A stretch of DNA of 40,263 nt from a virus (IMGVR_UViG_3300017782_000058), one strand, 5' to 3'. Counted from the first letter of the stretch, positions 1-40,263 are shown. The notes: generated from the letters alone by a model not told the origin. Made by a program: numbers and translations.

Positions 1-123
1 GGTCTGCCATTGTAAGCGATTTTTGCTCCTGTTGCAATATGTTCAACGCTTGTGCAAAAACCTTTCTAATCTGCGCCCTTTCTGGTGGGCCTTGCGGTGC
101 TTCCTTTTGACCATCTAAATATA
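1..123. repeat. Terminal direct repeat, copy 1. This is a circular-contig assembly overlap, not a biological DTR.
   Basis: Bases 1..123 are letter-for-letter identical to 40141..40263. The repeat ends exactly at the window edge and lies inside a continuous coding frame. Confidence 0.95.
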
Positions 124-3100
124 CAGTCTGCATATTGCCTGATTTACGCAGTTCATCACCAATGCTCATTCGCTTTTGATTTGCTTTAGGCTCACCCAAT
201 GTGTCGGTAACTACCTTTGCATTGGCCTCAACTGTCATTGGTGCAATCTGTGCCATAGCTACACGATTAGCAGGCTTCATGCTTGACTTTTGAATTGCGA
301 CAGCAACCTCGTCAATGTTTGACATTTTGATTTTCATCTTAATGATTTTTTCAAATGCCGCTTTGTCTTCTTTAGTCATTCCCTTAATCAAAGATTTCAT
401 GGCCTGACGTTTTACTTTTGCTTGCTTACTGTAGTCAGTGATTAGCGTCCCGGTCATGCGGCCCCAGGTACGCATTAACCACCTGTCCATAGTTAGCTGC
501 TCAAAGTGACCGTATAGGTTTGCAAAGAAACCATTACCAATCTTTGGCCCCAGGATAGCTGCGCCATAAACCATTGTGGTTTTGTTTTCACCAGATACCT
601 TTTTCCCAGTGAATGCCTCTACCTCTTTGACAGAATGCATGGTGGTCATGAAACCTTCAAATGCTTCAAAACCATACTGGTCAATCATTGTGTTATAGAA
701 ATCTAGACCGCCATTAATTGCGATAGTTGCCGTGCCATCACCTATGTCAGTAGGCATACGGCCATCAGCTTTAAACTTAGCGTATGCTTTTTCTGCTAGC
801 TCAAAATTTTTGTTTACCTTTAATCCATTTGATGTGACAGCCAGAGCCCAGGTAAATGCAAACTTAGCTTCGGGATCGGTGGCCACCTCTGGATGTATAA
901 GAGAAACCAAACGTAGCGCCTTAGTAATCTTTTCATCGTACCAGCCAACAGCATTTGGATTTGTTTGAATAGCAAACAGCGCATCTGACAGCACCGCATC
1001 AACAAGATATTTTTCTGTTGCTACAGAGAAATCAGATAAATCAACACCAGCTGCTTTTGCTGCTGTATTAACTCGATCCTGGATTGCCACCTTTAGATCA
1101 CGGTTTGTTGCAAATTGCTGCGACCCAGCAAATTCAAAACTGTTTTCTAGTTTGCTAACATCTAGGACGCTATCAGGTACGGGCTTGCCAGGGCGTTGCT
1201 CTCTTCCTCTTTGATAGAACACGCCTTCATCAACTCTAGGCGATACTCGAGGCAGATCTGCCAGGCCAGCTTCAGCGTTAATAGCAGTCACTTCGTTATC
1301 AGATAGAACCCTGATCACTTTCATGCTGCCCGAAATCAACCAGTCACCGGTCATGTTTGGATTTGTTTTGTATCTATAATGACCATCATTTGGGATCTGG
1401 TCTGTGATGTGTGCAGTTCGAGGAATGATCTCCCCGTTCTTGTTTCTGGTTGCACGTTCATTAGCTGTAGTCTGCCAGTCAACGTCAGCTGGAAGCTCTA
1501 CTAATGCCCACACCTGGTTGTCTGGTCTGTAATCTGGCTTTGTTTTGTCACGGCTTGTTTTGCCACCAATATGGCTTGCCATTGGCAAATCACCAGAATG
1601 CCAGCCTGGTCTAAACGCCAGCTCTCCAATTTTAGATTTAACTTTTCCTGACGCTACTTGCGGCCCAACTTCTGCCTCAATCCATTCATTAGTTTTGACC
1701 GGTGTGTTTGCATTCACAAACAAGGGGAACAATTCACCTGGCCTGTTTGGATCGATACGAAATAATTTATATGCCTGGACAGTATCTCGAGGCTCTAGCT
1801 TTCCTTGTTGGAATAGCGTCTTACCTGTTGTTTCATCAATACCTGACTGCTGCGCTTGTTCAATAGCCACCGCATCTGTATTTGCTTGCTGCAATATGTT
1901 TGCAGTTTCATTTGACCATGTGCCGCTATTAAACTGTGATTTGATTGCTTTGTTATCAAAGATTACAATCTCATTAGAATTGTCTCGACCACCTGGGTTA
2001 TTAGGCATAATAACGCCATCGTAACCTTCTGCAACAAGCCTGTCTCTAAAACCATCAGCTGCCTTGCGGCCACCTACTCTGATCTCTTGTTTCTCTTCCA
2101 GGGTTGCTATGTATGGATTTTCCAACCGGGCAAACATCGGCATGATGTTAGCGCCAACACCATCATCAGGTATTCTGCCAGTTCTTTTCTTTTGTGCTTT
2201 TTGTTCAGCATAAATTTTTGCAAGGGTGGGATCGTCTGTTGCATATACCCCAGTGCCTAGCCATCCAGTATCGTTTCTGTTTGGATGTTCAAAATCAAAT
2301 GCCTCAATACTGTCTGCAGTCCCATGATAAATAACTTTTGGCGAACCATCTTCATTTACTAATTTTGACTGACCAAAAAATTCTATAAACTCCGGGGTGT
2401 CAAATCTTGCATTGCCATTGTTATCGAACAGCTGTTGAGCTGCCTGGGCTTCTGGTTGTGCCGGCGCTCTAGCAGCTTGCTGCTGATTAACAATCTTATA
2501 CATATATTCGCTGTAAAAATCGGCAGGCAATATGTTCAGTTCAGAGGATTGCGTTACAACAAAATCACGCACAAAGTCTGCATAATTAGACGCGACATTA
2601 TTTGTGTATGCGCCGGTAGCTTTAATTTGATCCAGAATACTTTTACGTACTTGTGCTGCGCTTTCTTTAAATCCTTCTATTTCTGCATTCTTTTCTTCGA
2701 CAATACGCAACGCCTCTTCTGTCATAGCCTGGCGGTCTTTAACAAACTGCGCCGCCTCTGTTGCGCTCATGCTGTCTTCAGTAACTCGCATATGTGGCTG
2801 CAATGCAGTACCTAGATCTGTGCCAGCAATTTTTGCTGCGTACTCGCCTGTTTGAATTTTTACATCACCCTGGCCACCGGTTGCGTTTATCTCTTTCAGC
2901 TCTTCGGCTACTTGTGGTGAAACTGCCTCGAGCTGTTCCATTGTCACGCCATTAGATTTTAGCTGCTGATTTAAAATTTCAGCATCAATGTAAATGTCAG
3001 TAACATCCTTGCCGTTTGCAGTGTTTTGTATAAACGCCTGGAAAGCAGTCGGGTTTCTTTTCTTTGTCTTGCTATCGTTTGACAGTGTTGACAATTGCTC

Positions 3101-4399
3101 AATAAATGCAGTCTCTCTTGTAGATGCTTTTGCTTTTGTGTAGTTGCTGTAAAAACTAACACTTGCACCGGGTATAGCTAGCAACGCCATACCTTTGCCA
3201 ACTTTTTCAAATATCCCTATTAGCCTGGCTGAAATCTGGGCTCTACCTTCTTCAGTGGCTCCCAGTGCCTCAAACTCACCTTCACTAAATTCTTTTGCTA
3301 TCTCCGCACCAGCAATAGCTGAGATCTCTTGCAGCACCTCTGTAGAAACTTCTGCTGTCCATGTCTTGGCATATGTGCCAGCAAATGCTGCAAATGCTCT
3401 TCCTGTCCCTGGCTTTTTCATTGCCTGGGCAACATCTTTTGTCACCCTTTTCATTAATGCTTTTTTAAATGGGGCAGCAACAACGCTGACGCCAACAACC
3501 TCGAGAGCCGCATTGACTATACCAACACCAGACGATGCGTATTGTGCAACATCTTTGTCTATGCCTTCTTCAATCATTTCTAAATATGAATGACCGCTTT
3601 CTATTACATAACTTTCTGCACCCATCTTTGCTACAAAGCCGGCAAAGAAACCGCCAACAAATGCGCTTGGTACTGTTATAATTTCTTCTGGTGTCGCAAT
3701 CTGTGGCCCAACTTGCCCGGCAATACCAACAGCTGTTGCATAAGACATACCAGTGCCCAGGCCAAACTCAAAAGCCTTGGGCATAGTCTTTGACATTTGG
3801 CCAACAAACTCTGATGCATTTTCCCAGAAACCAGCGCCATCACCCTCTAGCTCTTGGATACGGGAATTGATTTCTCCGATCCTAGCATCAATGTTTTCTG
3901 ATGATTGCCCTGTTTGTTTAAGATTGCCCAGCCTGCCCAGCTCATCCACTAGCCGGCCTTTCTCAAAGCCTTGTGATGTATTGTTTGGAATATTTACTAC
4001 CCCATCAAACACAGTCTCGAGAACGCCTAGTCTTTCTGTATCGTCATGAGCAATTGCTGCAAACGCTGGATCTCTTAATTGCTGTGCCAGGAACGGGCTT
4101 TGTTTAGCGAGGTTGTTTTGAAATATATCAATTTGTTTCTTTTTTTCTTTTAATTTATTGATAGCCTCATCGCTGTCTATTTTAACATCTGGTGGCAGAT
4201 TTAGGCTCTGCTGTATTTTCTGAGCCTCACCAACTTTATCGGGATCGTTATTAGAAACTGATGACAGCATCTTTTTAAGGATCGCATCACTCTCAGCATT
4301 TTCACGCTCTATTAATTTTTCAAAAGGATTGGCTTTTATTTCGCCATAGTTCTGGCTTGGAGCCGCATCAATTAATTTATCAAATGGATTGTCGGCCAT
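1..4399 (-). CDS. N-terminal 1,466 codons of a giant (3,146 aa) polyvalent internal-virion/ejection protein. The ORF continues across the circular junction into 35099..40140.
   Basis: This ORF is absent from the ORF track because it has no in-window stop. I translated the minus strand from the ATG at 4399, which lies 2 nt after the TAA of the 778-aa gene: MADNPFDKLIDAAPSQNYGEIKANPFEKLIERENAESDAILKK... The frame (first codon bases = 1 mod 3) stays open to position 1. It is in phase with codon 46, which equals 40186, and reads ...KVFAQALNILQQEQKSLTMADL, the same as the track ORF start. It contains an ART-like module (..VIYHGT..GTGVYAT..NEIVIFDNKAIKS) and hydrophobic helices. Confidence 0.9.
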   Translation of the reverse strand, partial: MADNPFDKLIDAAPSQNYGEIKANPFEKLIERENAESDAILKKMLSSVSNNDPDKVGEAQKIQQSLNLPPDVKIDSDEAINKLKEKKKQIDIFQNNLAKQSPFLAQQLRDPAFAAIAHDDTERLGVLETVFDGVVNIPNNTSQGFEKGRLVDELGRLGNLKQTGQSSENIDARIGEINSRIQELEGDGAGFWENASEFVGQMSKTMPKAFEFGLGTGMSYATAVGIAGQVGPQIATPEEIITVPSAFVGGFFAGFVAKMGAESYVIESGHSYLEMIEEGIDKDVAQYASSGVGIVNAALEVVGVSVVAAPFKKALMKRVTKDVAQAMKKPGTGRAFAAFAGTYAKTWTAEVSTEVLQEISAIAGAEIAKEFSEGEFEALGATEEGRAQISARLIGIFEKVGKGMALLAIPGASVSFYSNYTKAKASTRETAFIEQLSTLSNDSKTKKRNPTAFQAFIQNTANGKDVTDIYIDAEILNQQLKSNGVTMEQLEAVSPQVAEELKEINATGGQGDVKIQTGEYAAKIAGTDLGTALQPHMRVTEDSMSATEAAQFVKDRQAMTEEALRIVEEKNAEIEGFKESAAQVRKSILDQIKATGAYTNNVASNYADFVRDFVVTQSSELNILPADFYSEYMYKIVNQQQAARAPAQPEAQAAQQLFDNNGNARFDTPEFIEFFGQSKLVNEDGSPKVIYHGTADSIEAFDFEHPNRNDTGWLGTGVYATDDPTLAKIYAEQKAQKKRTGRIPDDGVGANIMPMFARLENPYIATLEEKQEIRVGGRKAADGFRDRLVAEGYDGVIMPNNPGGRDNSNEIVIFDNKAIKSQFNSGTWSNETANILQQANTDAVAIEQAQQSGIDETTGKTLFQQGKLEPRDTVQAYKLFRIDPNRPGELFPLFVNANTPVKTNEWIEAEVGPQVASGKVKSKIGELAFRPGWHSGDLPMASHIGGKTSRDKTKPDYRPDNQVWALVELPADVDWQTTANERATRNKNGEIIPRTAHITDQIPNDGHYRYKTNPNMTGDWLISGSMKVIRVLSDNEVTAINAEAGLADLPRVSPRVDEGVFYQRGREQRPGKPVPDSVLDVSKLENSFEFAGSQQFATNRDLKVAIQDRVNTAAKAAGVDLSDFSVATEKYLVDAVLSDALFAIQTNPNAVGWYDEKITKALRLVSLIHPEVATDPEAKFAFTWALAVTSNGLKVNKNFELAEKAYAKFKADGRMPTDIGDGTATIAINGGLDFYNTMIDQYGFEAFEGFMTTMHSVKEVEAFTGKKVSGENKTTMVYGAAILGPKIGNGFFANLYGHFEQLTMDRWLMRTWGRMTGTLITDYSKQAKVKRQAMKSLIKGMTKEDKAAFEKIIKMKIKMSNIDEVAVAIQKSSMKPANRVAMAQIAPMTVEANAKVVTDTLGEPKANQKRMSIGDELRKSGNMQTVYLDGQKEAPQGPPERAQIRKVFAQALNILQQEQKSLTMAD

Positions 4400-4401
4400 C
4401 T

Positions 4402-6738
4402 TTATTGTCCCAGACTTGATATATATTTGTCAGCCTCTGCTGCATTCTTAGGCCGATTAGCTCTGATCCACAATTCAGCAATCTTCTGTTCTGACACTGG
4501 AATACGTTTATTATTAAACCCAGATATAATTAGCGCTCGAACACCAGCTGGGATTGATGTCATATAAATTTGTTCACCGCCTACATTAACGTATGCATCT
4601 TCGAGCTGGTCAGGATCGAGCGATGATACAGGCACAGAGGGATCTCTGCCGAGCTCATCGAGCATAACTTTGTCCATAAGCAGATCATTTAAAATACCTT
4701 GTTTCTTGTCTCGACTTATTGGATTGTTGCCATTCTCAATTTGCGCCATGTCAACTCTGGTTTTCCAGGCTTCTGTAATTTGTATGTAATCCATTTTTTC
4801 TTTGTCATTGCCTTTGGACAGATCGTCAAAACCCATACGGTTTAATGTTGTGTCCAGCATATTGCCATCGACAGATGCCGATATAAAGTTTTTGCCCCCC
4901 TGGGTGCTAGCCTCAATACCAGCTGCTACAAATGATTTGTACTGGCTTTCGGATAACAGAGGTCTGAATTTTTCGATGTTTCCTGTAAGCATTAGAGAAG
5001 GGTCTTTTAAAATCTTGATAACAGTATCTGGATCATCGCCACGGTTCGGGCCTTCACGTAAAGCTGCTTTGTCTTCTGGCCTAATAGAATTCCATTGGGC
5101 CGGCGGTATATCTTGCCAGCCGCCTATTCTGGCAAACGCAACGTCTTGAGCTTGCTGGTGCATCTGAGAATAATTTGTTTCTTGAAAGTTTGTTTTCTCG
5201 GTATGCCAGGCTTTTATATATGTCTCAGCATGATCTAGCTTATCTGGATCTTTTATTGTGTCTCTAGCTTGCTTCAACATATCTTCTAATAAAGGCACAC
5301 CAGTGTTTTTATCTGTTCGGTACATTTGTTCTGCTGTCGTATAGCCTTCCCCACTTAAAGCGGTGTAGTCTACTTTTGACCCTATGAATGCTATATCGCT
5401 TTGCATTAGATCTACATGGTCACCTTTTGTGGTGGGCTGTAGAACGCCATCAATTTTTAATCCAAACTTGTTTTTTATTGCTTCGTTTGCAGCGAACATT
5501 GCTTTGTCTAAAACTACTGCAGGGTCACCCTTTTTGCCACCAGCATCTCTAAAAATTTTATCTGCAGCATTCACGCCTAATTTGCTTATAAGGTATAAAT
5601 GCATAGCCCGGTGCTCCGGTACTACACTCATATAGTCAGATGCGTTTTGCATAATCTGCAGTTGTTCTAATGCATCTTCCTGGTTCAGATCCATGACAGG
5701 AATACCATCATTCATGTGCAGCCCAAATCTAACCGGGCCACCAGCACCATCGTTGGCAAGGTATCCACTAGGCAATGTTTGTAAAAACTTAGCCTGGTCT
5801 TCATATATAAAACTGTTTGGATTACCTGTGAAATTTACAATTGATTTTCCTATATCTGTGCCAGCTTGCTTTTCATAGCCTGTTCTGATGGTTCCAATAT
5901 ATCTATTAGATACCTCGCTGCCTATCGTGCCTTGCTGCATATTAGTTTGCAGATATGCCATAGCTTTAAAATAGTCTTCATCAGCAACCATCGCGCCTAG
6001 TGCGCCTTCATGGATAGTGTCAAACGTACTCGCCATTAATTGTTTACGCTGCCAGCTGTCTTTTGATCCTTCAATATTTGGATCTTGTTTTTCCCAGCCC
6101 TGCTCATCTGCATAATCAGATGCAGCTTTTATAGCTGCTGCTGTATTGATTGTGTATTGACCAGTAGGGTCTGTCCAATCTTGATAGGCCATGCCAGCAT
6201 TTTTTGCTAACACGTTTACATGGGCTTTCTTTTCAGCATCAGCATACTTGCGCTGCTCGACAATAGAATGCCTGGCCATTGTGCTTGATGCGGAACGAAT
6301 AGAGCTGGCCGACATTGATTGAAGCATATACTTCTGTTTGTCGTTATCAGCTCGGTCTAAATATGAACCTAGCTTGCCTTCTAAATCGTTTATTGTCTGG
6401 TCAAAAACAGATATGGTAGCGCCTGTCTCGGGATCTTTACCCACCGACATAACAGCGCCTGGCCCTCTTGTAGATAGATAGTCTAGCTGAACGCCCTCGA
6501 GCTCGGTTGCAAACTCATTGTATAATTGTTTTGCTTTTGCATCATCCAGCTCATCTTGTAGCTGTCTAGAAATAATGCTTAATTGCTTGCCTTCTTTTTG
6601 TAGAGCCGCACCAAACTTTTGCTGGGATATTGCCTGATAGTTTTGTACCGGCGTAACACCTTGTCCTTGGAACCCTGCTGCTGATCCAACCTCTACGCCT
6701 ACTGTGGGTGTTTCCTGTAACGGTACTCTAGCCATCAT
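4402..6738 (-). CDS. Internal virion (core/ejection) protein, analogue of the T7 gp15 position
   Basis: A 778-aa ORF. It sits downstream of the nozzle and the small internal virion protein, and directly upstream (2-nt gap) of the giant ejection protein. I recognised no enzymatic motif. Confidence 0.55.
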   Translation of the reverse strand: MMARVPLQETPTVGVEVGSAAGFQGQGVTPVQNYQAISQQKFGAALQKEGKQLSIISRQLQDELDDAKAKQLYNEFATELEGVQLDYLSTRGPGAVMSVGKDPETGATISVFDQTINDLEGKLGSYLDRADNDKQKYMLQSMSASSIRSASSTMARHSIVEQRKYADAEKKAHVNVLAKNAGMAYQDWTDPTGQYTINTAAAIKAASDYADEQGWEKQDPNIEGSKDSWQRKQLMASTFDTIHEGALGAMVADEDYFKAMAYLQTNMQQGTIGSEVSNRYIGTIRTGYEKQAGTDIGKSIVNFTGNPNSFIYEDQAKFLQTLPSGYLANDGAGGPVRFGLHMNDGIPVMDLNQEDALEQLQIMQNASDYMSVVPEHRAMHLYLISKLGVNAADKIFRDAGGKKGDPAVVLDKAMFAANEAIKNKFGLKIDGVLQPTTKGDHVDLMQSDIAFIGSKVDYTALSGEGYTTAEQMYRTDKNTGVPLLEDMLKQARDTIKDPDKLDHAETYIKAWHTEKTNFQETNYSQMHQQAQDVAFARIGGWQDIPPAQWNSIRPEDKAALREGPNRGDDPDTVIKILKDPSLMLTGNIEKFRPLLSESQYKSFVAAGIEASTQGGKNFISASVDGNMLDTTLNRMGFDDLSKGNDKEKMDYIQITEAWKTRVDMAQIENGNNPISRDKKQGILNDLLMDKVMLDELGRDPSVPVSSLDPDQLEDAYVNVGGEQIYMTSIPAGVRALIISGFNNKRIPVSEQKIAELWIRANRPKNAAEADKYISSLGQ

Positions 6739-6745: not shown

Positions 6746-7408
6746 TTATTTTAGTTTCACGGTTGAAGGACTACCGCTAGCTGCTGGATTGTTGGCCAGT
6801 TGAGAGTACAGTTGAGCTGATTGCGTATCTTGATAATATCCGCGCATCATATTGCCAGCCCCTGTAAGCAGTGTCGTTGACATATTTAAAAAACTGTCGA
6901 TTGATTTAGCGCTAGCAAATGTGTTCCTTGCAGACATCCCAAGCATATCGCTAGCTATTGTAGTGTTAACGCCACGCAGACGCATATCGTTTGCTGCCTT
7001 AACTTTGTTACTATTCATTGTTAACAGATCAATTTCTTTCATAATCTCAGAGCTAGCAAAAGCATTTGCTGTACTGCCTACACTGATATCTATGCCCCTT
7101 GCACGCATCGATGTTTTGGCAGTTGATTTAGCTGCGCCTGCTTTGAGTGTCTGTATTTGAATTTGTTTATTGTATGCCCGGTAGATCTGTTGAGCTTGTT
7201 TTTCTTGCATCCGGCCAGTAATTTTTGCCATGTCTCGCTTGTGCTCTAGACTAAGCGCCTGGCTTTTTAACTGGTACTTTTTTGCTTCATCAGCGTAGTA
7301 CCCACCAAAAATAGAATTGATTGCACCACCAACTTGTAGGATTGGCCCCATCTCTGCAAAGCTGTCTATTGTACTTTGACTGAAGCCAAATGGATTTGCC
7401 GTAGACAT
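6746..7408 (-). CDS. Small internal virion protein, analogue of the T7 gp13/gp14 position
   Basis: A 220-aa ORF with a Gly-rich hydrophobic N-terminal segment (ILQVGGAINSIFGGYY) followed by a Gln/Lys-rich helical region. An AGAGG ribosome-binding site lies upstream. The function is assigned from position only. Confidence 0.5.
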   Translation of the reverse strand: MSTANPFGFSQSTIDSFAEMGPILQVGGAINSIFGGYYADEAKKYQLKSQALSLEHKRDMAKITGRMQEKQAQQIYRAYNKQIQIQTLKAGAAKSTAKTSMRARGIDISVGSTANAFASSEIMKEIDLLTMNSNKVKAANDMRLRGVNTTIASDMLGMSARNTFASAKSIDSFLNMSTTLLTGAGNMMRGYYQDTQSAQLYSQLANNPAASGSPSTVKLK

Positions 7409-7467: not shown

Positions 7468-7478
7468 TACGGGCACAC
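7468..7478 (-). promoter_or_regulatory. Variant copy (GTGTGCCCGTA) of the conserved strand-specific motif, in the nozzle / internal-virion intergenic region
   Basis: The minus strand reads TAG-TGTGCCCGTAACTGGG directly after the nozzle stop codon. It shares the 9-mer GTGCCCGTA with the copies at 13.4, 16.5 and 35.1 kb. Confidence 0.4.
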
Positions 7479-9940
7479 TATCCACCTATAGAAACTTCAA
7501 GCGTCACACCTATTACAGTAAGCGGAAGAGGATCTGTTTGCCTAATAAATATTTGTCCATTGTCTGCCCATGTCGGTGTGAGCATTATCTTAACGTCTTG
7601 TGTTTTAAGGTTAGGCGGCGTTCCATAGGGCTCTGTAGTACGCTGTTTAGCTTCTACCAGGTTCTGATCATTTGGCCCGGCAAAGATACCAGAGCTCTCT
7701 AAAACACGCAGCCATGCATGGTTTAAGTTCTTTACACGGCCCTGTCCAAACGCCTCTGTCTGTAGAGCTAAAGGCAACGTCTGTACATCACTGTTATATT
7801 CCAGGCCAACATGAACGACACTTGATGCCCGGTCTAATGTTATAGATCCGCCTGTTACCACTCTTTGCGGATGCACCGCACCGTTCTCGAGAATGCTAAC
7901 TGTTTTACCTTCCAGCCAATTCAAACCAGAAATAGTGTTTCTTGCCACCTCAAAGCCTGTTGTGGCGGTGTTCTGTAAGTTTGCTGGTATATCTCTATCT
8001 ATCTGCACATTGGCCTGTGTGGCGCTTACAGTGCTGATAATGGTGCATCTATAATATTGATCACCATCAACCAGGATAATCGCATCGCCAATATCTGATA
8101 AACTTGGTGGTGCATTAAATAAATTATAATTTGTTGTAGCTGTTAGCGTGTCACCTTTTGAATAACTAGCGCCATTCACCGTTACGTTTCGGGCAGTGTT
8201 TGTATTGATGCCGTTATAAGTGGCCCCTGCATCGACAAAGAAACTATCACGCTGGGTTTTAAATAATCTGGTTCCCATTCGTTCAATATATCTTTTTTCA
8301 ACGCCGCCTATTGTTCTTTTAATTACACAATAAACAACATCATCATCGCCCTCAGAGACTGTCGCAACGCTTTCAAACTTGCCATCTGTGTCATGCCAGT
8401 GCCATGCGCCTACAGTCTGTTCTGGGACGTATGTAAGGCCCAGCAATCTGCCTTGTGTATTGACCATCCAAACAATTGGTGTTGGTGCTTTAGCCAAGGC
8501 CATATCTATTATTCTGTAGTTATCGAATAGATGTGATGCACGCAGTGACAGATCTCCGGTGATAAAACCATTGGCCTGCCAGTTGTATCCCAGCTCTCTT
8601 ATATGACCACCACGGGATGCGGCATAAACCATACTATTATTAACGATCACTGGTTGAGCGTTTGATGCACCTACGTAAGACTGTGGTTTAACAGATATTG
8701 ATGTTGGTGTGATTGCATCACTGTTAACTGATTGCACGCGCCATTCTGCAGATCCTGTCATTAACAATAACTGGGTCAGCGGCACGATGTGTCTAATTGT
8801 ATTTGCTTCACGGGCAGCAACTCTAAACTCAATACGATCATCATCACGTATTGGTAAGCCGTATGACATATTGCTTTCAGTACCTGATTTAGTCATCCAA
8901 ATACTTTGTGGAGCATTATTAGTGCCGGCAAAAACTCTACGCTGCTCAAAATAGGATACAGCGCCCGGATAGTTGCCTGTCCCAACAAAATCATTTTCAT
9001 AGATTGGTGGTGTTCTAGAAAAGTCTGGGGATATATTAACGTCTTCGATGCTGTTTCCTGTTGTCTCACCAATGAAACCAAATATGCCGCCGACATCTTT
9101 ATAAACTCGATATCTAACTGCATTGGTTACTGAGTTCCATGAAATAGTATTTTTAGCACCCGACACAAAAATGTTATTTGTTCTTGATGCAGTATTTGAT
9201 TTAGCGCTTTCGTCAACCAGGTTAGCTGCAATAGCTGTTACGCAATACCGGTGCGTTTCATATGTGTCACTGTTTACGCTTTCTGATGATGGTATATATC
9301 GCGCTACACTGACGCCACCTGGCCTGCCAATAGGGCTGCCGAAATCAATATTGGTTACTTGCCACTGAGAAGCGCCAAGCCTTCTTAATTCTTTTGGAGC
9401 ATGATTAGGGTGCACCAGTGTCATCACATCAGCTGACTGCACGTAATGCACATCAAACAGCTCTGCTTCTAGATACGGCGATGGTATCTCGTATGTGTAA
9501 TCTGTAGGTAATGCATACCAGTAAGATGCATTTGGTGGTGTGTTGTTTGTATTGTCTGCAGTGCAGTAATAATTTACGCCACCTACTTTTGCTATGTCAC
9601 CTACATCGTAGGCTGTACTGCCACTCCAGGCAGCGCCATCTGCATATTGTAATGTTGACCCTTGTGTGTGAAACCTCATGTACTGATCACCAAGCTCGAT
9701 GACCATTGTTTGTGTGGTGTTAAATGTAAACGATAACAACCTTACAGACTTTGTGCTGTCTTTAACCTCATTAACATATGCAAAGCCTGGACGGTTTTCT
9801 GCCGGGCCTTGTGGCTTGGCTATAAAGTTACGCATCCTTGCCGCGCCCTGTTGATACTTGGCATCATCAATACGTCCGAACATTTCTGGCGAGATCTCAC
9901 CGCCTGAGAATGCCCTGTTAAATGTACGGGTATTTGGCAT
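7478..9940 (-). CDS. Tail tubular protein B / nozzle protein (T7 gp12-like)
   Basis: An 820-aa ORF immediately downstream of the gp11-like adaptor. Its N-terminus, FSGGEISPEMFGRIDDAKYQQGAARMRNFIAKPQGPAENRPGF, is typical of podovirus nozzle proteins as I recall them. Confidence 0.65.
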   Translation of the reverse strand: MPNTRTFNRAFSGGEISPEMFGRIDDAKYQQGAARMRNFIAKPQGPAENRPGFAYVNEVKDSTKSVRLLSFTFNTTQTMVIELGDQYMRFHTQGSTLQYADGAAWSGSTAYDVGDIAKVGGVNYYCTADNTNNTPPNASYWYALPTDYTYEIPSPYLEAELFDVHYVQSADVMTLVHPNHAPKELRRLGASQWQVTNIDFGSPIGRPGGVSVARYIPSSESVNSDTYETHRYCVTAIAANLVDESAKSNTASRTNNIFVSGAKNTISWNSVTNAVRYRVYKDVGGIFGFIGETTGNSIEDVNISPDFSRTPPIYENDFVGTGNYPGAVSYFEQRRVFAGTNNAPQSIWMTKSGTESNMSYGLPIRDDDRIEFRVAAREANTIRHIVPLTQLLLMTGSAEWRVQSVNSDAITPTSISVKPQSYVGASNAQPVIVNNSMVYAASRGGHIRELGYNWQANGFITGDLSLRASHLFDNYRIIDMALAKAPTPIVWMVNTQGRLLGLTYVPEQTVGAWHWHDTDGKFESVATVSEGDDDVVYCVIKRTIGGVEKRYIERMGTRLFKTQRDSFFVDAGATYNGINTNTARNVTVNGASYSKGDTLTATTNYNLFNAPPSLSDIGDAIILVDGDQYYRCTIISTVSATQANVQIDRDIPANLQNTATTGFEVARNTISGLNWLEGKTVSILENGAVHPQRVVTGGSITLDRASSVVHVGLEYNSDVQTLPLALQTEAFGQGRVKNLNHAWLRVLESSGIFAGPNDQNLVEAKQRTTEPYGTPPNLKTQDVKIMLTPTWADNGQIFIRQTDPLPLTVIGVTLEVSIGG

Positions 9941-9943: not shown

Positions 9944-10627
9944 TTATCTCCCGGATGTCCAAGGGACGATATGTTCTACGCTAATTTGCCTGTGTGCGTT
10001 GTCTGATTTCTTTGCTTGCTGCATATATCCTTGCATCATAGATGTGCATCGCTTTGCCTCTGCAGTGCCCTGGTCACCTTTAATTACAGGCCCGGCTAAC
10101 ATCGATGCTAGATGCCATGAAAGTGTCATTGTGAACAATGAAGAAAATTTAGTGGTGTCGTTTACATATGCCTGGTAACGCAACATGGCATTTTTTTGGT
10201 TAGAATAAATTAACTGATTACCGCTATTGTCTATCTCTAATACAAATTGCTGCGGTGTATACTGGCCAGCTGAAATGGTTGGCGCATAGTTAGATGTTAT
10301 GCCGCCCGGTGTATCACCAGCTGACATTCTAGTAGCGTAATCATTTTGTGCTGATGGTGAGATCACTGCTACTGCAGACATCATATCGCTGGGTGCAATG
10401 TATGCATATTCCCATTGATTGTTTGTGTTTGTCGATGAAGCCAAGTTCCCACGTTTTGTTGCAAAATCCCAGGCGTGCATATCTAATAACGTGTCTCGAG
10501 CTATCGGATAAAATCTTGACGCATTCTGTGCCTGCGCTGAACCCTCTGGTGGGGACAGCGTTGCTATCGTTGCATCATCACCCAGGTGCGCCAGGGCAAG
10601 ATTGCAGATGTCAACTTCTGTTGCCAT
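9944..10627 (-). CDS. Head-to-tail adaptor / tail tubular protein A (T7 gp11-like)
   Basis: A 227-aa ORF. Its N-terminus, VDICNLALAHLGDDATIATLSPPEGSAQAQNASRFYPIARDTLLDMHAWDFA, parallels the T7 gp11 N-terminal pattern (VNDILASIGEPPVSTLEGD...QSRGWTFN). Synteny supports the call. Confidence 0.65.
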   Translation of the reverse strand: MATEVDICNLALAHLGDDATIATLSPPEGSAQAQNASRFYPIARDTLLDMHAWDFATKRGNLASSTNTNNQWEYAYIAPSDMMSAVAVISPSAQNDYATRMSAGDTPGGITSNYAPTISAGQYTPQQFVLEIDNSGNQLIYSNQKNAMLRYQAYVNDTTKFSSLFTMTLSWHLASMLAGPVIKGDQGTAEAKRCTSMMQGYMQQAKKSDNAHRQISVEHIVPWTSGR

Positions 10628-22797: not shown

Positions 22798-22945
22798 TTA
22801 GAGATGTTGCCATAAATGCAACGCTTCGTAAACCGTTGATCTACAAGGGTTTCAGCAGGTCTACAAATATCAACAAAAAATAACTTGCGTTGTTGATGGG
22901 TGTTGATGTAAGCTCTACACACATTCAAAAAAAAGGAGTTACAAA
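22798..22945. promoter_or_regulatory. Divergent early regulatory region with operator-like repeats
   Basis: A 148-bp gap between divergent genes. It holds GTTGAT at 22835..22840, ATCAACA at 22869..22875, and TGTTGATG twice at 22891..22898 and 22901..22908 with a 10-bp period. TCTACA occurs at 22840, 22860 and 22914. AAGGAG precedes the plus-strand ATG. I could not assign exact -35/-10 hexamers with confidence. Confidence 0.6.
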
Positions 22946-33911: not shown

Positions 33912-35030
33912 TTATCCCAGTGCGATTGCATAAACGATGGCATCAGAATTGATTTCTAACAGCTCATCTCCACCAGCATTTTTTACATTAACAGAAATAC
34001 CAACGCCTGAGATAATCTTCTGTTGTAGTGTGTTTGCGTTTGTATCATTGGTTGTTACTTTTACAGTGCCGCCGCCTGATGTTGCCGCCGCACTATTTGC
34101 TGCAGCTACCGCTTGATCTCTTGCTGTTCCGGCTGCTGTCTCGCTTGCTTGTGCATTTGTTTCTGCAGTCTCGGCATCATTCTTAGCTTGTAAAGCATCA
34201 TCCCGGTGATCTTCTGCAGACAGTTGGGCTTGTTGTGCGCTGTCTCTATACGAAACTGACAAGCCTGCCGCATCGTTTGCATCGGTTGCGCTGCCAGACG
34301 CCGCTAGTGCGCTTGCTGCCGCTGCTGCTGCTGATGCCCCGGCAGCTGCTGCATCTACTATTAATGCCCAGTTAGTTATCTGTGCATTGCTAGACAAAGG
34401 CGTTGTGCCGCTAGACGTATGCGTTGCCTGATTAATATATATGTTTGAGTTAGAGGCATCTTTTACTATGTCTCTAATACCGTATGTAACTCCAGCGCTC
34501 CAGTCACCTCGGAAAACACCAAGCTCCTGTGCTACCTGGAATTCACCTTGTGCATCAAAAGCTAGTACCTTGTTTGCTCGAGCTGCTGCGTTTTCTGATA
34601 TCTCCAAACTACCGATAGTGTTTGTGATAGAAAACTTAATAGATCTTTCGAGATCTGACTTTTGCTGTTGAGCTAAGATCACCGCTTTGTCTAAAGCGTC
34701 ATTAATAACCTCTGGATAAAAACCACCTTGGTTAGTTAGATCTGTTCCTTGCAACGGTTGCAAGTTAGATGTGATTGTTACACTTTTCCCGATCACCAAA
34801 TTTCCAGCGGTCAAAGTAATATTACCACCAGGGTTACTATTTTGATCCTGATTAAGAATAACAGTGTAATCAGTTGAAAGCGCCAGCGTTGTTTCAATAC
34901 TTGTGCTGGCCTCTAAAATAATGACAACAACATCCGCAGCTTCAAACACTTTAAAGCTGAATGGGAATGTAGCCGCATTAGCTGTACCTGGGTACGGCCC
35001 GGCCTTTCGTATTGTAGAGCTTATGGTCAT
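33912..35030 (-). CDS. Tail fibre protein
   Basis: A 372-aa ORF. It has the N-terminus GPYPGTANAATFPFSFKVFEAADVVV and a central Ala-rich helical region (AAAAGASAAAAAASALAASG...NDAETAETNAQASETAAG) typical of phage fibres. Confidence 0.7.
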   Translation of the reverse strand: MTISSTIRKAGPYPGTANAATFPFSFKVFEAADVVVIILEASTSIETTLALSTDYTVILNQDQNSNPGGNITLTAGNLVIGKSVTITSNLQPLQGTDLTNQGGFYPEVINDALDKAVILAQQQKSDLERSIKFSITNTIGSLEISENAAARANKVLAFDAQGEFQVAQELGVFRGDWSAGVTYGIRDIVKDASNSNIYINQATHTSSGTTPLSSNAQITNWALIVDAAAAGASAAAAAASALAASGSATDANDAAGLSVSYRDSAQQAQLSAEDHRDDALQAKNDAETAETNAQASETAAGTARDQAVAAANSAAATSGGGTVKVTTNDTNANTLQQKIISGVGISVNVKNAGGDELLEINSDAIVYAIALG

Positions 35031-35098: not shown

Positions 35099-38000
35099 TC
35101 ATCTACTAGCCGGACTTGCCTTGCCGGTAACCAACCCTCTGAGAAAATCAGCGTCACTAGTAGGATCAATTTTACCGCTTTCTACATCTACCGCATATCC
35201 AATTGGTCTACCCAATACTGTTAGCGGTATACCGGTTACCAATGACAATAATGTTAGAACATCCCTGACATTTTTTCCGGTCACATCTTTATCTTCATCA
35301 ATGATATTGATCGCTGTTTTAACAGTTCCTACTGTTGCAGCCTCGAGCAATGATATTGATGGGCTTGTGGTCATACGGTCATCGTATGGCAAATCATTAA
35401 ATGAATTTAAAGGCACGATAGCAATTGTGCCAAATGGCACTAACGCTGCAGCGCCTCTTAACTGTGAACCAAAGAACCATCCAGCCACCTCATCTAGATA
35501 ACCGTCATCATCTTCGTCATCAAAATCACCACCTACTGCCCGGACAATGGCATCGGCTACCAACATAGGCAATCCAAAACCTAACAAGTATGTCATAAAC
35601 AGCTGGCCTTTATTTCCTCGCCAACCAAGATCTCTAAATATTTTTGTGTATGCTGTAGCGTTTAAGTTAGCCAGCATATTAAAGTAACCGCCAAACTGTA
35701 ACATTGTTTTATAGAACGGCGAACCAACTTGGAATGCTGCAAGATCTTCTGCAGTCAAACTATCCTGGGTCATACGCACGTTAGCGTCAGCTCTTGCTAT
35801 AGCTTCTTTTTCAGCAGCCACATCTTTAGTTGATGCAGGCAGTTCTGCTAGCGTCTTGTTATATGTAGCAATCCACACAACGGTATCGACCTGGTTTTGA
35901 AATGCTTGCTGTAGAAAATAGCCGTGTCGTTGCGCCCACTTTTGGATCTTCGCATATTTACTTGGGTTGAGCAGAAGATCGTTTAATGTTTCTTGAATAT
36001 CAAAAATTTGATTACGCTGACGATCTGCCATAAACGGTGATAGCTCGGCTATCTCGGTTTGAGCTTTCATAGGCGCTTTCATATACTGAGCCAAACCAGA
36101 TCTTAAATATTTGCCTTCTACCTTTAGGGCGGCTGGAAAATATCCTGTGATTTGCTGCAGTGCGTTTGTGATATTGGCAAACATAATGCCAACACCAGTT
36201 CTGTTTCTGACTGCTCCCCAAAACTTGTCCATAGTTTGGTTTATGCCACGTTCAATTGTTGTCTGCCTGGCAGATCTATTAAGCCAAGGTATCAACATCT
36301 CTTCGATAGCGCCCGGATCAATAGCAGTTAGATTATCTGCAAATTGTCTATTACGCAGTATCTTCGTAACATCTTTAATAGCTGGCTGCAGATATGCAAA
36401 ACGCAAAACATCATCGATGTGCTTGGTCATTAACCTAACATCTAATGATAAAGGCTGATTGTATTCGACACGGCCTTTTGTAAATCCATTGCCAGTGCTT
36501 GGCAGTGCTTGTCTAAAATCACCCTCAAGCTCTTCTAGCTTTGCATTGCGTTGTGCATCACGCACCATAAATGGATCTGTTTTAGCCGGCACGTAACCGC
36601 CTCTGAACGTACCAAATCGGTTAGTGATAGGCACGGCCTCAACTTCATTAAAATAATAACCGTAGATTTCATTGTGTGCTTTTTGTGCCAGTGGCTTCAT
36701 TTCTTCTGTCATGTCCCAGACAGATTGTAGAAAATCAAAATCAGCTTTTGTCAAAACACCTTCATCAATCATACGATCAATAAATGTATCCCATTTAGCT
36801 GTATCCATTTCTTTGTTGTCATCCAATACGGCCCAGTTTCTACCGACAAGTAATTTACGCAGATTGCTTTCATTGCCCATGTGCAACATAGCGCCTAGTA
36901 ATTCTGCTTTGCCTAGGCCACCGTTCTCGTTCCCAAATGTATAACCAAACTCCCCGGCAATAATTTTACCTTTGCCCAGGTCTAGCTTGGCAATCATTTC
37001 TGCGTAACGCCTTGTGTAATTATTACGTGCCACACGATATAAATCTACCGCGCCTCTAATTGGACGCCATATATATTTGGTGAAAGCACCTACCCCGGCA
37101 GCCCCATCTAAACTATCAGCCCAATGCTCTACACGGCGCAGCTGGGCTTTTGTTGTATTGATTGATCGCATTATACGAGCTTTACGCCCTGGGGCTTCTG
37201 TGCTGCCCTCTGGCGTGTCTGGTATTCCTATCTCTTCTAGACGCAAGTTGAGCTCACCTATGACCCCTTCAAGCTCCATAGTCTGGCCATCGATAGTAAT
37301 TTGTTTATCACGCCGCGATTGATACCACAGTGACTGGATCATATCATTGAGTGTGTCGAATTCTTCACCGGTCAAATCTTTTATGTCCCGGCCACCCATT
37401 CTTGATGCGTCCATAATTAATGGTTCGACCTGGGCAAACATATCTGGATTATATGCTTTTAGCTTTTCAACGTAATCTAGTGGGCTATCAACTTTTGGCC
37501 CCATGTTATAAGCCGCCAAAATAGATCTGGCTGCATTTACTAGATCCATGTTTCTATTTTTTGCTAGCTTTTTATCTGCTTTGAAAACTTGCTTAAATAA
37601 TTTTTGTGCTTTGTCATACCGCTTGTGCACCTCGATTGCTTCACGCGCCAGCTGGTTTTGAATTAACTGTGCACGTTTTGCGCTAACAGCGCCGGCACTA
37701 TCACCTTTACGCATTGCCGCTTCTGCAGCCTTTACTGCTTTAGCTTCATTTCTTGCAAATTGTGATGGGCGTATTTCACGTAGTTTCTTTTTAGCCAGCA
37801 ATTCTTTTGCTACCTGTCTAGCTGCGGCTACCTGATAACGTACTGGCTGCATAGATTTAGATAGAAAACGCAGCTCTACCGATATGAACCTGGCTCGAGC
37901 TTCATTATGCAATGCCTCTTGTACTTGTAACTCTTGCTGTCTCGGGTCAGTCAGATCACTAAACTCATTTAACATACGGGCATCAGTTCGCTCAGTGATA

Positions 38001-40263
38001 ACCTCTTGCATAGGTCTAGCATTAAGCAACGCATTAATCATTGATTGCCCGGTTTCATAACCAAACATTTCTGCCACGATTGATACCGGCATACCGTCTT
38101 TTGCCACCATGCCGTATTTGCCAAACCCTAACTTTTTAATTTGGTCATTTGTTAGCTCTGGCATCAAAGCCTTTATGTCATCGATGGATATTTTGTGGCC
38201 ATCTTTTGCTGCCACTCTTTCGCCTTGTTCGTTGACAAATTCTCCACGCTTCAGAAATCCAATAATCTGATATATTTTTTCTGATTGTAATTTTTGAGCT
38301 TCTTCTTCTGAAACTTTTTTACGTTGAGTTCTGGCTGTTGCCTGTAGTTCTTTTATTACCCGGCTCCTAGCATTGGACAACCATTTGACCTGTCTCATGC
38401 TAGCTTTGGTCATGTCAGTGACAGCGCTATCATGCGCGTCTTTCATTATTTGTGTGTACTCGGCCCAGGTGGCGTCATCCATTCCGCTTTCTTGCTGGGT
38501 CTGGAACATTGCTTTCATGCCGTAAACTTGCTCTGCCTGATTAATCTGGTCTTCACTGGCAAGCATACGATCCATAACACCCCTAACTTCATCAGTTAGT
38601 ATTGGCAGATCTACGCCATTTTCTTGTCTGTAGATTACGTTTAGCTCGTCCCTGATTGACCGATATATACGCCGGAGGAAAGTGCTAAACCGATCAAACA
38701 GGGACTGCATTTTGACATTTGGAGCTTTGCCCTCGAACAAATAAATCTCAAAGTTATATGCAAAACTTTCATGATATTTTCTTTGCTCATTAAGTGACAG
38801 CTTATTCCAAGTGTCTAGATTTTCGACACCAAAGAAATCCAAAAGAGTTTGGAAATCATTTACCATCTTAGGTGTCGCATTTTCTTTACCGGCTAAATCG
38901 GCCATGACAGTCAACATAAAGTGAGCTGTCTCATGTAAGAACGTAGAATAGTCTGCGTCCTTATTTAATATTGTTGTAAGTGTAGTCGGATCAAAACCAC
39001 CTCTAGCACCACCAGGTATTTTTTCCTGAGATAAAATTTCGCTTTGCTGCATACCGTCACCAGTGATTGTTTCCATGTCACCGGCCACGCCTTCTTCATA
39101 TGTAAAGGCAGGCATCAGCCCAGTCTTTTGTTCTGCAAAAATAGTTTCTTCTAGAGAGGCTGTTCTGTTTTGTGGGCCATATGGGCCAAAGTTAAGCCAA
39201 CTGTTTTGGCCTCTTGTTTCTGTTGTGATAGCTGCACGGGCAGATCCAGTGAATAATCTAATGTGCGCTTGCCAGGCATTCTCTTCACCGTCATATCTAA
39301 ATCCAGAACCTTCTATGCCGTGCCCAAACGCATCGTGTACGGCTCTAAACAGATCATTGGCCAGAACCCTCTTAGGCTCACCGTCAAGGCTGCCAGAAGG
39401 CCATGTAAGGCCGGTATCGGCCAACATAGGATTTTCAGTAGAGCTTACAGTTTCTTCTGATCCAAACCCTGTTTCTGATGCATACACGGCCAAGGTTTGA
39501 TTGGCACGCAGCTCACGCATAGAGTTCCAAGGGTTGCCACCATATGGATCTGTAGTGTCATCAAAGAAATAGAATTGATATCCAGCATCTATTAGCGCCT
39601 GGTATTGGGCTGTAGTCTGCTTAATTAAATTTTCATATGCTTCAAGCACAACCGGATCATTCGGCGTATGCTCCATCTGTTCATATGCATTGGCTATTCT
39701 CGTAGCCAGGTCTGTGTTTACTCGGACGTATTCTCGTTGTCTTCTAAGATCGATCCCATTGTCTCGAGCGTATCGTTCAGCAACGGTGACAAGTCTGATG
39801 TCTGGGCCGGTTGCTCCATCGATGGTTGGCGCACCTTGTAACGGCGCAAGGCTTCCGCCTGCATACCCATCTCTTCTGTCTCGCTGGTTAAGAATTCTGT
39901 CTCCATCTCCAGGTTGTGTTCTTCCTGGCTGGATAGAGGTCTGTTGTTTGAGTTCATTATCTACATCCTTTATCGTTGCGTTAACATCAGCATCAGACAC
40001 ACCACGGCTCCGCGCTAGTGCAGCAGCGGCGTTAGCGTAGTCTGGCGCTTCCTGGTCTTCGTATCCCGTGTTGCCTTCTTGCTCCGAAACTTTCGCAGCA
40101 TCATACAGACGCTTTTCGGGATACCAAAGCAACGCCTGTAGGTCTGCCATTGTAAGCGATTTTTGCTCCTGTTGCAATATGTTCAACGCTTGTGCAAAAA
40201 CCTTTCTAATCTGCGCCCTTTCTGGTGGGCCTTGCGGTGCTTCCTTTTGACCATCTAAATATA
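35099..40263 (-). CDS. C-terminal part of the same giant polyvalent internal-virion/ejection protein. The track ORF 35099..40186 is a truncated view of it.
   Basis: The frame is open from the stop at 35099..35101 up to the window end. The track start at 40186 is a TTG that encodes Leu inside the continuous frame. The segment contains FLHETAHFML (an HExxH motif), LFRAVHDAFGHG, and C-terminal hydrophobic helices (GQLFMTYLLGFGLPMLVADAIV; AAALVPFGTIAIVPL). It occupies the T7 gp16 position, after the internal virion proteins. Confidence 0.9.
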   Translation of the reverse strand, partial: YLDGQKEAPQGPPERAQIRKVFAQALNILQQEQKSLTMADLQALLWYPEKRLYDAAKVSEQEGNTGYEDQEAPDYANAAAALARSRGVSDADVNATIKDVDNELKQQTSIQPGRTQPGDGDRILNQRDRRDGYAGGSLAPLQGAPTIDGATGPDIRLVTVAERYARDNGIDLRRQREYVRVNTDLATRIANAYEQMEHTPNDPVVLEAYENLIKQTTAQYQALIDAGYQFYFFDDTTDPYGGNPWNSMRELRANQTLAVYASETGFGSEETVSSTENPMLADTGLTWPSGSLDGEPKRVLANDLFRAVHDAFGHGIEGSGFRYDGEENAWQAHIRLFTGSARAAITTETRGQNSWLNFGPYGPQNRTASLEETIFAEQKTGLMPAFTYEEGVAGDMETITGDGMQQSEILSQEKIPGGARGGFDPTTLTTILNKDADYSTFLHETAHFMLTVMADLAGKENATPKMVNDFQTLLDFFGVENLDTWNKLSLNEQRKYHESFAYNFEIYLFEGKAPNVKMQSLFDRFSTFLRRIYRSIRDELNVIYRQENGVDLPILTDEVRGVMDRMLASEDQINQAEQVYGMKAMFQTQQESGMDDATWAEYTQIMKDAHDSAVTDMTKASMRQVKWLSNARSRVIKELQATARTQRKKVSEEEAQKLQSEKIYQIIGFLKRGEFVNEQGERVAAKDGHKISIDDIKALMPELTNDQIKKLGFGKYGMVAKDGMPVSIVAEMFGYETGQSMINALLNARPMQEVITERTDARMLNEFSDLTDPRQQELQVQEALHNEARARFISVELRFLSKSMQPVRYQVAAARQVAKELLAKKKLREIRPSQFARNEAKAVKAAEAAMRKGDSAGAVSAKRAQLIQNQLAREAIEVHKRYDKAQKLFKQVFKADKKLAKNRNMDLVNAARSILAAYNMGPKVDSPLDYVEKLKAYNPDMFAQVEPLIMDASRMGGRDIKDLTGEEFDTLNDMIQSLWYQSRRDKQITIDGQTMELEGVIGELNLRLEEIGIPDTPEGSTEAPGRKARIMRSINTTKAQLRRVEHWADSLDGAAGVGAFTKYIWRPIRGAVDLYRVARNNYTRRYAEMIAKLDLGKGKIIAGEFGYTFGNENGGLGKAELLGAMLHMGNESNLRKLLVGRNWAVLDDNKEMDTAKWDTFIDRMIDEGVLTKADFDFLQSVWDMTEEMKPLAQKAHNEIYGYYFNEVEAVPITNRFGTFRGGYVPAKTDPFMVRDAQRNAKLEELEGDFRQALPSTGNGFTKGRVEYNQPLSLDVRLMTKHIDDVLRFAYLQPAIKDVTKILRNRQFADNLTAIDPGAIEEMLIPWLNRSARQTTIERGINQTMDKFWGAVRNRTGVGIMFANITNALQQITGYFPAALKVEGKYLRSGLAQYMKAPMKAQTEIAELSPFMADRQRNQIFDIQETLNDLLLNPSKYAKIQKWAQRHGYFLQQAFQNQVDTVVWIATYNKTLAELPASTKDVAAEKEAIARADANVRMTQDSLTAEDLAAFQVGSPFYKTMLQFGGYFNMLANLNATAYTKIFRDLGWRGNKGQLFMTYLLGFGLPMLVADAIVRAVGGDFDDEDDDGYLDEVAGWFFGSQLRGAAALVPFGTIAIVPLNSFNDLPYDDRMTTSPSISLLEAATVGTVKTAINIIDEDKDVTGKNVRDVLTLLSLVTGIPLTVLGRPIGYAVDVESGKIDPTSDADFLRGLVTGKASPASR
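40141..40263. repeat. Terminal direct repeat, copy 2 (duplicate of 1..123)
   Basis: Identical to 1..123 by direct comparison. The unique genome length is therefore 40,140 bp. Confidence 0.95.

Follow-up and report, generated by a model that had tools for sequence, protein, structure and literature searches.

The stretch of DNA analysed here, referred to as the window, is the 40,263-nt viral contig IMGVR_UViG_3300017782_000058, and the subject of this study is a minus-strand gene for a giant protein that lies across its two ends. Bases 1-123 were exactly identical to bases 40141-40263, and no third copy of this 123-nt repeat was found on either strand of the window. The minus-strand frame running from the ATG at position 4399 to base 1 comprises 1,466 codons with zero stops. 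When positions 40141-40263 were trimmed and the circle was rotated, the longest stop-to-stop frame had 3,156 codons, and its first start codon was this same ATG. The joined gene, 4399..1 plus 40140..35099, is 9,441 nt long and encodes 3,146 aa (348 kDa). Its 5' part (1..4399) holds codons 1-1466 and the first base of codon 1467, while its 3' part (35099..40140) runs from the rest of that codon to residue 3146 and ends with the TGA stop at 35099-35101. The ATG sits 2 nt past the TAA stop of an upstream gene for a 778-aa protein. On the closed circle of 40,140 bp, the giant gene takes up 23.5%.

This gene had been proposed in an earlier note on the same DNA, and the trimming, rotation and renewed calling of open reading frames (ORFs) suggested there returned a single 3,146-aa ORF with the length and genome share that the note had given and no in-frame stop between 4399 and base 1. 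The gene had seemed to be absent because the circular assembly was linearised inside it. As the note had pointed out, the ORF track of the window lists no minus-strand ORF in 1-4400; this region looked empty because the lister does not report an ORF that extends past the end of the sequence. At the other end, the track lists a 1,695-aa 'TTG' ORF at 35099..40186. Base 46 equals base 40186 through the duplication, which repeats the TTG codon of 46-44 at 40186-40184. This codon encodes Leu1452 within ...AQALNILQQEQKSLTMADL..., so the note was right to read the track's initial methionine as an internal leucine. The duplicated segment itself (40141..40263, assigned to neither strand) arises where a circular or permuted assembly overlaps itself, and it lies inside the coding sequence, over residues 1427-1467.

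By our own arithmetic, the chance of a random 3,156-codon open frame is ~1e-80, given 43.9% GC, at which ~5.7% of random codons are stops. Two homologues also span junction residues 1427-1467: MW202722.1 was 64% identical over giant residues 1057-1556, whereas P0001, a metagenomic protein, was 61% identical over residues 1068-1685. Because both are collinear through the junction, its continuity is biological and the contig-end join is not an assembly chimera. An exact-sequence look-up with the contig-end fragment (1,720 aa) returned no record. A 10.4-kb Logan contig from SRR10522317 holds the window's neighbouring gene and breaks inside the giant gene, and three near-complete circular IMG/VR contigs of this clade, 38-40 kb long (L020, L027 and L047), are cut at different points inside the same gene, as is to be expected since it fills so much of the circle. 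The earlier note had held that any linear annotation of this contig would split or lose the gene. The GenBank relatives are cut elsewhere and have the gene correctly annotated as a single coding sequence (CDS).

At least seven separable modules were recognised in the giant protein by Pfam, PHROGs and pairwise alignment, all of them encoded on the minus strand. The N-terminal LPD22 domain (aa 44-136; 3992..4270) matched Pfam with an E value of 1.4e-13 and 51.3 bits (cutoff 28.6), and it is a signature common to Bbp10 of phage BPP-1 and all orthologues tested. It is followed by an N-terminal backbone, M1 (aa 141-670; 2390..3979), which corresponds to positions 288-679 of phrog_9880 and contains hydrophobic stretches at aa 239-258 and 289-312. 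The next module is an ART-PolyVal ADP-ribosyltransferase (ART) domain (aa 682-824; 1928..2356; Pfam E 4.3e-19, 70.1 bits, cutoff 31.2). Its triad H692/Y719/E810 is intact and aligned with that of orthologues, in the motifs YH692GT, GVY719 and NE810IVIFD. These residues would correspond to the strand 1 His, the strand 2 Tyr and the strand 5 acidic residue, and the domain is predicted to belong to the H-Y-[E/D] clade (ART-PolyVal / Tox-ART-HYD2).

Beyond the passenger modules described below, the protein continues with a zincin-like region (aa 1832-2100; 38240..39046) that was defined by an HExxH motif, HETAH at aa 1869-1873 (38921-38935), and a downstream motif, HESFAYNFEIY at aa 1923-1933 (38741-38773). 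We compared these motifs with those of 54 IMG/VR orthologues, which are the ORFs not running off the fetched locus among the best 80 of 345 loci. HExxH, in the context ST.xHExxH, was present in all 54, and the downstream HExFAxxFExY motif was present in 52 of them as well as in Bbp10 and gp39 of Caulobacter phage JessA. The C-terminal conserved backbone (aa 2101-3146; 35102..38239) falls within the match of aa 1812-3142 to positions 914-2229 of phrog_9880. Its ~1,050 residues are common to Bbp10, JessA gp39 and gp16 of Octadecabacter virus OANV1, and it has hydrophobic helices at aa 2980-3113 (35201-35602). Pfam searches with separate segments of the giant protein at E <= 10 gave noise alone besides one weak match in the HExxH region, and an NCBIfam scan of the protein gave no match.

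The central variable site carries a passenger insert of ~1,070 residues, made up of the H-Y-E ART and three further modules, M3, M4 and M5. M3 (aa 870-1052; 1244..1792) matched phrog_30118, a family of unknown function, had no Pfam match and was absent from the GenBank orthologues. Its structure model was poor (predicted local distance difference test score, pLDDT, about 30-65) because few sequences aligned there. M4 crosses the contig junction, with a first part at aa 1065-1466 (1..1207) and a second part at aa 1467-1540 (39920..40140). In an alignment of 50 sequences, about 65 of its columns are at least 90% conserved, and the AlphaFold2 model is all-helical with a pLDDT mostly above 90. M4 had no Pfam match and no PDB sequence match, and a Foldseek search of the PDB with the M3+M4 model found no match at E <= 0.001 (best E 0.12, template modelling (TM) score 0.09). 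An HMMER scan of 1.84 billion cluster representatives gave 1,885 matches to M4 (702 with E <= 1e-30), at variable positions and almost exclusively within proteins of 2,000-4,400 aa.

M5 (aa 1557-1831; 39047..39871) is an alpha/beta domain in its AlphaFold2 model, which has a pLDDT of 92.7 and a predicted TM score of 0.91. It has 25 invariant residues, including the motifs ND..R..HD..GH, GEEN..H and ETRGQN. This model also had no Foldseek match in the PDB at E <= 0.001 (best E 0.22, TM score 0.11), and the domain had no Pfam match; PDB sequence searches with both protein halves and with the M3+M4 and M5 profiles found nothing below E 0.2. In a library of predicted viral structures, M5 had 21 matches, all either uncharacterised or labelled polyvalent, ART-PolyVal, MuF or NAT. 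There were 943 sequence homologues of M5, many of them stand-alone proteins of ~225 aa. The domain is also known fused to MuF-type head proteins. Its C-terminal half matches small proteins of 199 mycobacteriophages. In one alignment, MAFFT paired the M5 motif RAVHDAFGHGIEGSGFR..GEEN (aa ~1735-1755; 39300-39360) with the backbone motif KYHESFAYNFEIYLFEGKAP (aa 1923-1933; 38741-38773), which may be coincidental or may hint at M5 being a diverged copy of that zincin-like region.

Across hundreds of relatives, ART, M3, M4 and M5 were found in shuffled order and in other combinations, with partners that included M15 peptidases, GNAT, SLT, PBECR5, LPD38/39, DUF7178 and DUF3293/SAM-lyase-like domains. 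Full-length and mixed-fragment MAFFT alignments were scrambled by this shuffled order and were excluded from modelling. The GC content of the individual modules ranged from 0.39 to 0.48, and that of third codon positions (GC3) from 0.30 to 0.39, with no clear sign of a recent foreign origin of the passengers.

The giant protein is orthologous to BPP-1 Bbp10 (blastp E 9e-132). Residues 50-671 of Bbp10 align to giant residues 49-729, and residues 717-1885 align to 1803-2959; therefore, ~1,070 extra residues are present in the giant protein at one central site. The same split was seen with phrog_9880 (2,231 positions), where giant residues 244-664 matched positions 288-679 and residues 1812-3142 matched positions 914-2229. 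Over the shared parts, identity was 25-30% to Bbp10 and 61-64% to MW202722 and DC33. The Bbp10 PBECR1 RNase domain (aa 643-729) overlaps the segment (Bbp10 aa 672-716) that is replaced by the passengers of the giant protein. By Pfam, LPD22 is combined with PBECR1 in Bbp10 and with ART-PolyVal in JessA gp39, OANV1 gp16, MW202722 and DC33. In each of these phages, the orthologue occupies the same slot as a single CDS: 3,209 aa in MW202722.1 (UOF81042.1), 3,125 aa in Limnohabitans phage DC33 (PQ492659.1; XLZ15523.1), 2,986 aa for OANV1 gp16, 2,052 aa for Bbp10 (NP_958679) and 2,039 aa for JessA gp39.

A scan of IMG/VR with the C-terminal backbone gave 345 relatives, and the 54 orthologue ORFs ranged from 2,667 to 3,647 aa. 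The giant size is therefore the norm for the clade, and just the exact passenger set is particular to this protein. The commonest layout among the 54 was LPD22-M1-ART-M4-[variable]-HExxH-C-terminus. M4 was found in 47 of them, M5 in one and M3 in none, and the combination ART+M3+M4+M5 was likewise found in none.

Several database records touch on this family. Many proteins of 900-1,800 aa on ~40-kb contigs (P0017, P0067, P0099 and others) may be contig-end fragments of the giant protein, and its full-length form may be under-represented in public protein sets. Two short proteins on one ENA contig of 40,074 nt, P0146 (171 aa) and P0169 (187 aa), are ~90% identical to parts of M5, which suggests a close relative whose giant gene is in pieces through frameshifts, possibly sequencing errors. 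The orthologues Bbp10, MW202722, OANV1 and JessA are labelled 'crystallin beta/gamma motif-containing protein', 'lysin' or 'lysis protein', and these labels seem to have been propagated from the BPP-1 record. In the DC33 record, all 11 of the 11 genes shown in the region are labelled 'hypothetical protein', including the 3,125-aa orthologue, and the GenBank taxonomy is given as Monodnaviria/Inoviridae, which is plainly wrong for a 39-kb BPP-1-like tailed phage.

The giant gene is flanked by genes of late, virion type (tail tube, internal virion protein and tail fibre). Genes of the window were assigned by PHROGs and Pfam. On the minus strand, tubular tail A (9944-10627) and tubular tail B (7478-9940) are followed by a 220-aa internal virion protein in the slot of internal virion protein (IVP) B, or gp14 (6746..7408; phrog_418), and by the 778-aa protein, placed by position in the IVP-C (T7 gp15) slot (4402..6738). 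After the giant gene, a 372-aa tail fibre with a T7-gp17-type N-terminal adaptor (33912..35030, minus strand) lies 68 nt past the stop codon. This order mirrors T7 gp11/12-gp14-gp15-gp16-gp17, and the giant gene occupies the T7 gp16 (IVP-D) slot. The earlier note's placement in a gp16-type slot is thereby upheld by synteny with T7 gp11-gp17 together with orthology to Bbp10, and its estimate of more than twice the size of gp16 agrees with the 2.39-fold length that we obtained.

The giant protein contains no cysteine in its 3,146 residues, and its 54 orthologues contain one in 157,393 residues. Cysteine is also absent from T7 gp16 (0 in 1,318) and from the 220-aa and 778-aa proteins in the internal-protein slots of the window. 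Twelve other proteins of the window have 27 cysteines in 6,336 residues (0.43%), and therefore ~13 would be expected in the giant protein. Cysteine may have been selected against in these proteins because they pass through the oxidising periplasm in unfolded form. The near-total absence of cysteine would lend indirect support to a role as a low-copy, ejected component of the capsid core. It may be a general signature of ejected proteins that cross the periplasm, and might help to flag them in other phages.

Taken together, the giant protein is probably an IVP-D (T7 gp16-class) internal virion or ejection protein, in which a conserved backbone carries passenger modules, encoded by a late gene of a BPP-1-like podovirus. 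Table 2 of Hardies et al. 2016 (PMC4819975) lists Bbp10, in the epsilon15 subgroup, as homologous to IVP-D (T7 gp16). The same authors concluded that 'passenger domains for intracellular function' are hosted by IVPs, with N4 gp50 and H66 gp60 as the cases cited (Hardies et al. 2016, PMC4819975). Phage polyvalent proteins were found among virion genes and predicted to be injected, with a metallopeptidase as a likely processing hub, and the ART-PolyVal, LPD22 and PBECR1 families come from that survey (PMC5512222). The giant protein probably belongs to this published class of IVP-D ejection proteins with passenger domains, that is, polyvalent proteins, and both concepts were already described in 2016-2017. 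The earlier note had taken it for a phage polyvalent protein, which is supported by LPD22 and ART-PolyVal matches above the Pfam cutoffs, at least seven modules and the virion neighbourhood. Residual interest lies in the two unmatched folded passenger domains, the backbone with a swappable cargo site, and the cysteine-free signature.

A mechanism can be proposed from T7, N4 and the two papers (PMC4819975, PMC5512222). The capsid core would package a few copies of the giant protein, which during infection would leave through the tail unfolded. The backbone would help to build a channel across the cell envelope, and the passenger domains would enter the cytoplasm with the DNA, where the ART, and probably M4 and M5, would modify host targets or counter host defences. 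Packaging and injection are, in this scheme, predicted by analogy with those systems. The HExxH domain may also process the polyprotein into separate functional units; this is the weakest step of the mechanism, and we consider it less likely than not. M4 (~475 aa, all-alpha) and M5 (~250 aa, with a conserved His/Asp/Glu cluster) could be new enzyme families delivered fused to a podovirus ejection protein, a tentative proposal in which we place somewhat less than even confidence. They might act as counter-defence or host-takeover effectors.

Several observations weigh against assigning the protein to the IVP-D class or its modules to the roles just given. When the C-terminal backbone was aligned directly to T7 gp16 by hhalign, the probability was 0.7%, which is not significant, and the comparison with N4 gp50 was not significant either. 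Since these direct comparisons failed, IVP-D homology rests on synteny and a published multi-step chain of hidden Markov models (PMC4819975). The HExxH region had just a sub-threshold Pfam match, to Tox-MPTase4 (E 0.0099, 16.2 bits, cutoff 25). Literature searches found no virion proteomics for the family and no data on virion incorporation or ejection of Bbp10, and in the BPP-1 cryo-EM paper mass spectrometry identified just two capsid bands. Searches on ART-PolyVal experiments and ejection-protein effectors also found no experimental data on the family. Finally, calling M3, M4 and M5 'effectors' is a guess from context.

Other explanations concern the contig ends and the role of the protein as a whole. 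The virion genome might be linear, with the 123-bp repeat as a genuine direct terminal repeat; the gene would then be split in the particle and restored only after circularisation or in a concatemer. T7-like podoviruses typically carry short direct terminal repeats, and the overlap is exact and confined to the two contig ends. However, it lies inside a conserved coding region, the deposited circular records of MW202722.1 and DC33 are opened at other positions and contain the whole gene, the ~40-kb contigs L020, L027 and L047 are cut at other points of the gene, and the large terminase matches the T4-type Terminase_6N. In addition, 123 is the largest k in a metagenome MEGAHIT k-list, which would yield exactly such an overlap, and we regard a terminal repeat as extremely unlikely. 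Another, very unlikely reading is that the giant protein serves to degrade the cell wall, as a 'beta/gamma-crystallin motif' lysis protein or a lysin associated with the virion. The GenBank product names of Bbp10, UOF81042, OANV1 gp16 and JessA gp39 would have it so, and the N-terminal lytic transglycosylase of T7 gp16 might suggest it. Pfam found no crystallin, lysozyme, SLT or peptidase family in the giant protein or Bbp10, and NCBIfam found none in the giant protein; crystallin and muralytic Pfam families were also absent from MW202722, DC33, OANV1 gp16 and JessA gp39. Moreover, the genome has a dedicated holin-endolysin pair elsewhere, and the domains that were detected (the ART, and PBECR1 in Bbp10) act on cytoplasmic targets.

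The central modules could also be read differently. If they were structural and served the core or the trans-envelope tube as spacers, rulers or assembly elements, instead of being delivered enzymes, the presence of M4 in 47 of the 54 clade members, where it is nearly a core part, would be accounted for, as would the failure to recognise a catalytic fold in M3, M4 or M5. Against this, polar and charged residues of the kind typical of active sites are invariant at many positions of M4 and M5, the modules vary in position and order, M5 also occurs alone (~225 aa) and fused to MuF, and Bbp10 and JessA gp39 function without M3, M4 and M5. We consider a structural role unlikely. We also considered M4, possibly with M5, as a highly diverged N4 gp50-type virion RNA polymerase inside an IVP-D protein. 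The M5 sequence 'VHDAFGH' resembles 'HDSFG' of motif C in T7 RNA polymerase, and among the six best PDB matches that Foldseek gave for the M3+M4 model, the first three were N4 mini-vRNAP entries (E 0.12-0.3). The layout of an N-terminal region, cargo and a C-terminal IVP-D part also parallels that of N4 gp50 (PMC5512222, PMC4819975). Yet a Foldseek probability of 0.08 with TM scores of 0.07-0.09 is noise, the M3+M4 profile reached a probability of just 0.14% in an hhalign comparison with full gp50, and M4 and M5 are separate, occur in either order and, in the case of M5, form a 225-aa protein alone. With Foldseek at the level of noise, hhalign not significant and no Pfam match, the RNA-polymerase reading of M4/M5 was rejected, and its probability is close to negligible.

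The assignment to the IVP-D class that we favour can be set against known systems. The Bbp10 group shares the slot, N-terminal LPD22, the HExxH region, the C-terminal backbone and the central passenger site, and the orthologues of MW202722, DC33 and OANV1 also share the length of ~3,000 aa and ART-PolyVal. They differ in cargo. Bbp10 carries PBECR1 alone and JessA gp39 the ART alone, in contrast to ART+M3+M4+M5 here, while the MW202722 orthologue lacks M3 and has ~190 other residues, and that of DC33 lacks M3 and M5 and has ~500 other residues. T7 gp16 likewise lies between an IVP-C gene and a tail-fibre gene and has zero cysteine, and its distant homology to Bbp10 was derived through epsilon15-group profiles (PMC4819975). 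Unlike T7 gp16, the giant protein is 2.4 times longer, lacks the N-terminal lytic transglycosylase and carries modules that are predicted to be cytoplasm-directed enzymes.

N4 gp50 (3,500 aa) and gp60 of Pseudomonas phage H66 are also giant virion proteins related to IVP-D; they contain an HExxH metallopeptidase region and, embedded in the chain, a passenger with a cytoplasmic function, and injection of gp50 was shown experimentally (PMC5512222, PMC4819975). The passengers of the protein studied here, however, are neither an RNA polymerase nor a methylase, and it has no detectable similarity to gp50. With the polyvalent proteins (Iyer, Burroughs, Anand, de Souza, Aravind 2017) it shares many unrelated modules, an H-Y-[D/E] ART, an LPD domain, a virion neighbourhood, module shuffling and, putatively, a zincin-like hub, but at least three of its modules, M3, M4 and M5, fall outside the Pfam families derived from that survey. 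T4 Alt provides a precedent for an ART that is delivered with phage DNA and modifies host proteins (PMC5512222); it differs in belonging to the R-S-E ART clade and in being a separate capsid-targeted protein that is not fused to an ejection protein.

These findings bear on how viral contigs are annotated. An arbitrary cut of a circular phage contig hides or halves its largest gene about a quarter of the time, and in this genome that gene is the likeliest carrier of injected effectors. For viral contigs, ORFs should be called on the closed circle. The family also shows in a natural setting 'what a phage sends in first': its conserved ejection backbone has one passenger site with readily exchanged cargo, which is an RNase in BPP-1, the ART in Caulobacter phages and ART+M3+M4+M5 in the giant protein. 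M4 and M5 are abundant, highly conserved, confidently foldable and structurally unmatched, which makes them reasonable targets in the search for new anti-defence or host-takeover activities, and M4 is present in Limnohabitans phage DC33, a relative that has been cultured.

The genome is that of a ~40-kb BPP-1-like podovirus, with BPP-1-like podoviruses as its nearest annotated genomes, and the giant gene is one real late gene within it. The late operon runs leftward through the terminases, portal, protease/scaffold, capsid, cement, tubular tail and internal proteins to the giant gene, the fibre and a 1,877-aa protein. The small and large terminases lie at 17106-18425, the large one matching the T4-type N-terminal domain (Terminase_6N), and the portal (Head-tail_con) lies at 14019-15710. 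The protease/scaffold gene comes between the portal and the major capsid protein of the epsilon15 GP7 type (11400-12419) in the listed order, followed by a Bbp16-type cement protein (10947-11375). After the tail fibre, the 1,877-aa virion structural protein (28265-33898, minus strand; phrog_5838) shows weak hints of tail-fibre and endosialidase beta-barrel domains and is probably a receptor-binding or depolymerase fibre. The remaining genes are lambdoid: O-like/primosomal, DnaC-like, RusA, RecE/RecT and the holin-endolysin pair (25856-26703), which is separate from the giant gene. PHROGs and Pfam found no phage RNA polymerase among the genes of the genome. No BPP-1-type reverse transcriptase turned up in the PHROGs ORF scan, which was not a dedicated search.

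The 778-aa protein had no lysozyme or SLT domain, no PHROG match and no NCBIfam match, and showed no similarity to BPP-1 Bbp11, a transglycosylase carrier. It is 29% identical over its full length to an MW202722 protein labelled 'lysozyme'. A 155-aa acetyltransferase (phrog_1249; 16039-16506, minus strand) lies between the portal and terminase genes. T7 IVP-A (gp13) has been assigned to an acetyltransferase family (Hardies et al., PMC4819975), and the 155-aa protein may be an IVP-A counterpart displaced from the tail module. A divergent switch region is present at 22582-23753, and the only sizeable plus-strand genes are of the RecE/RecT type (23753-25575), all others being on the minus strand.

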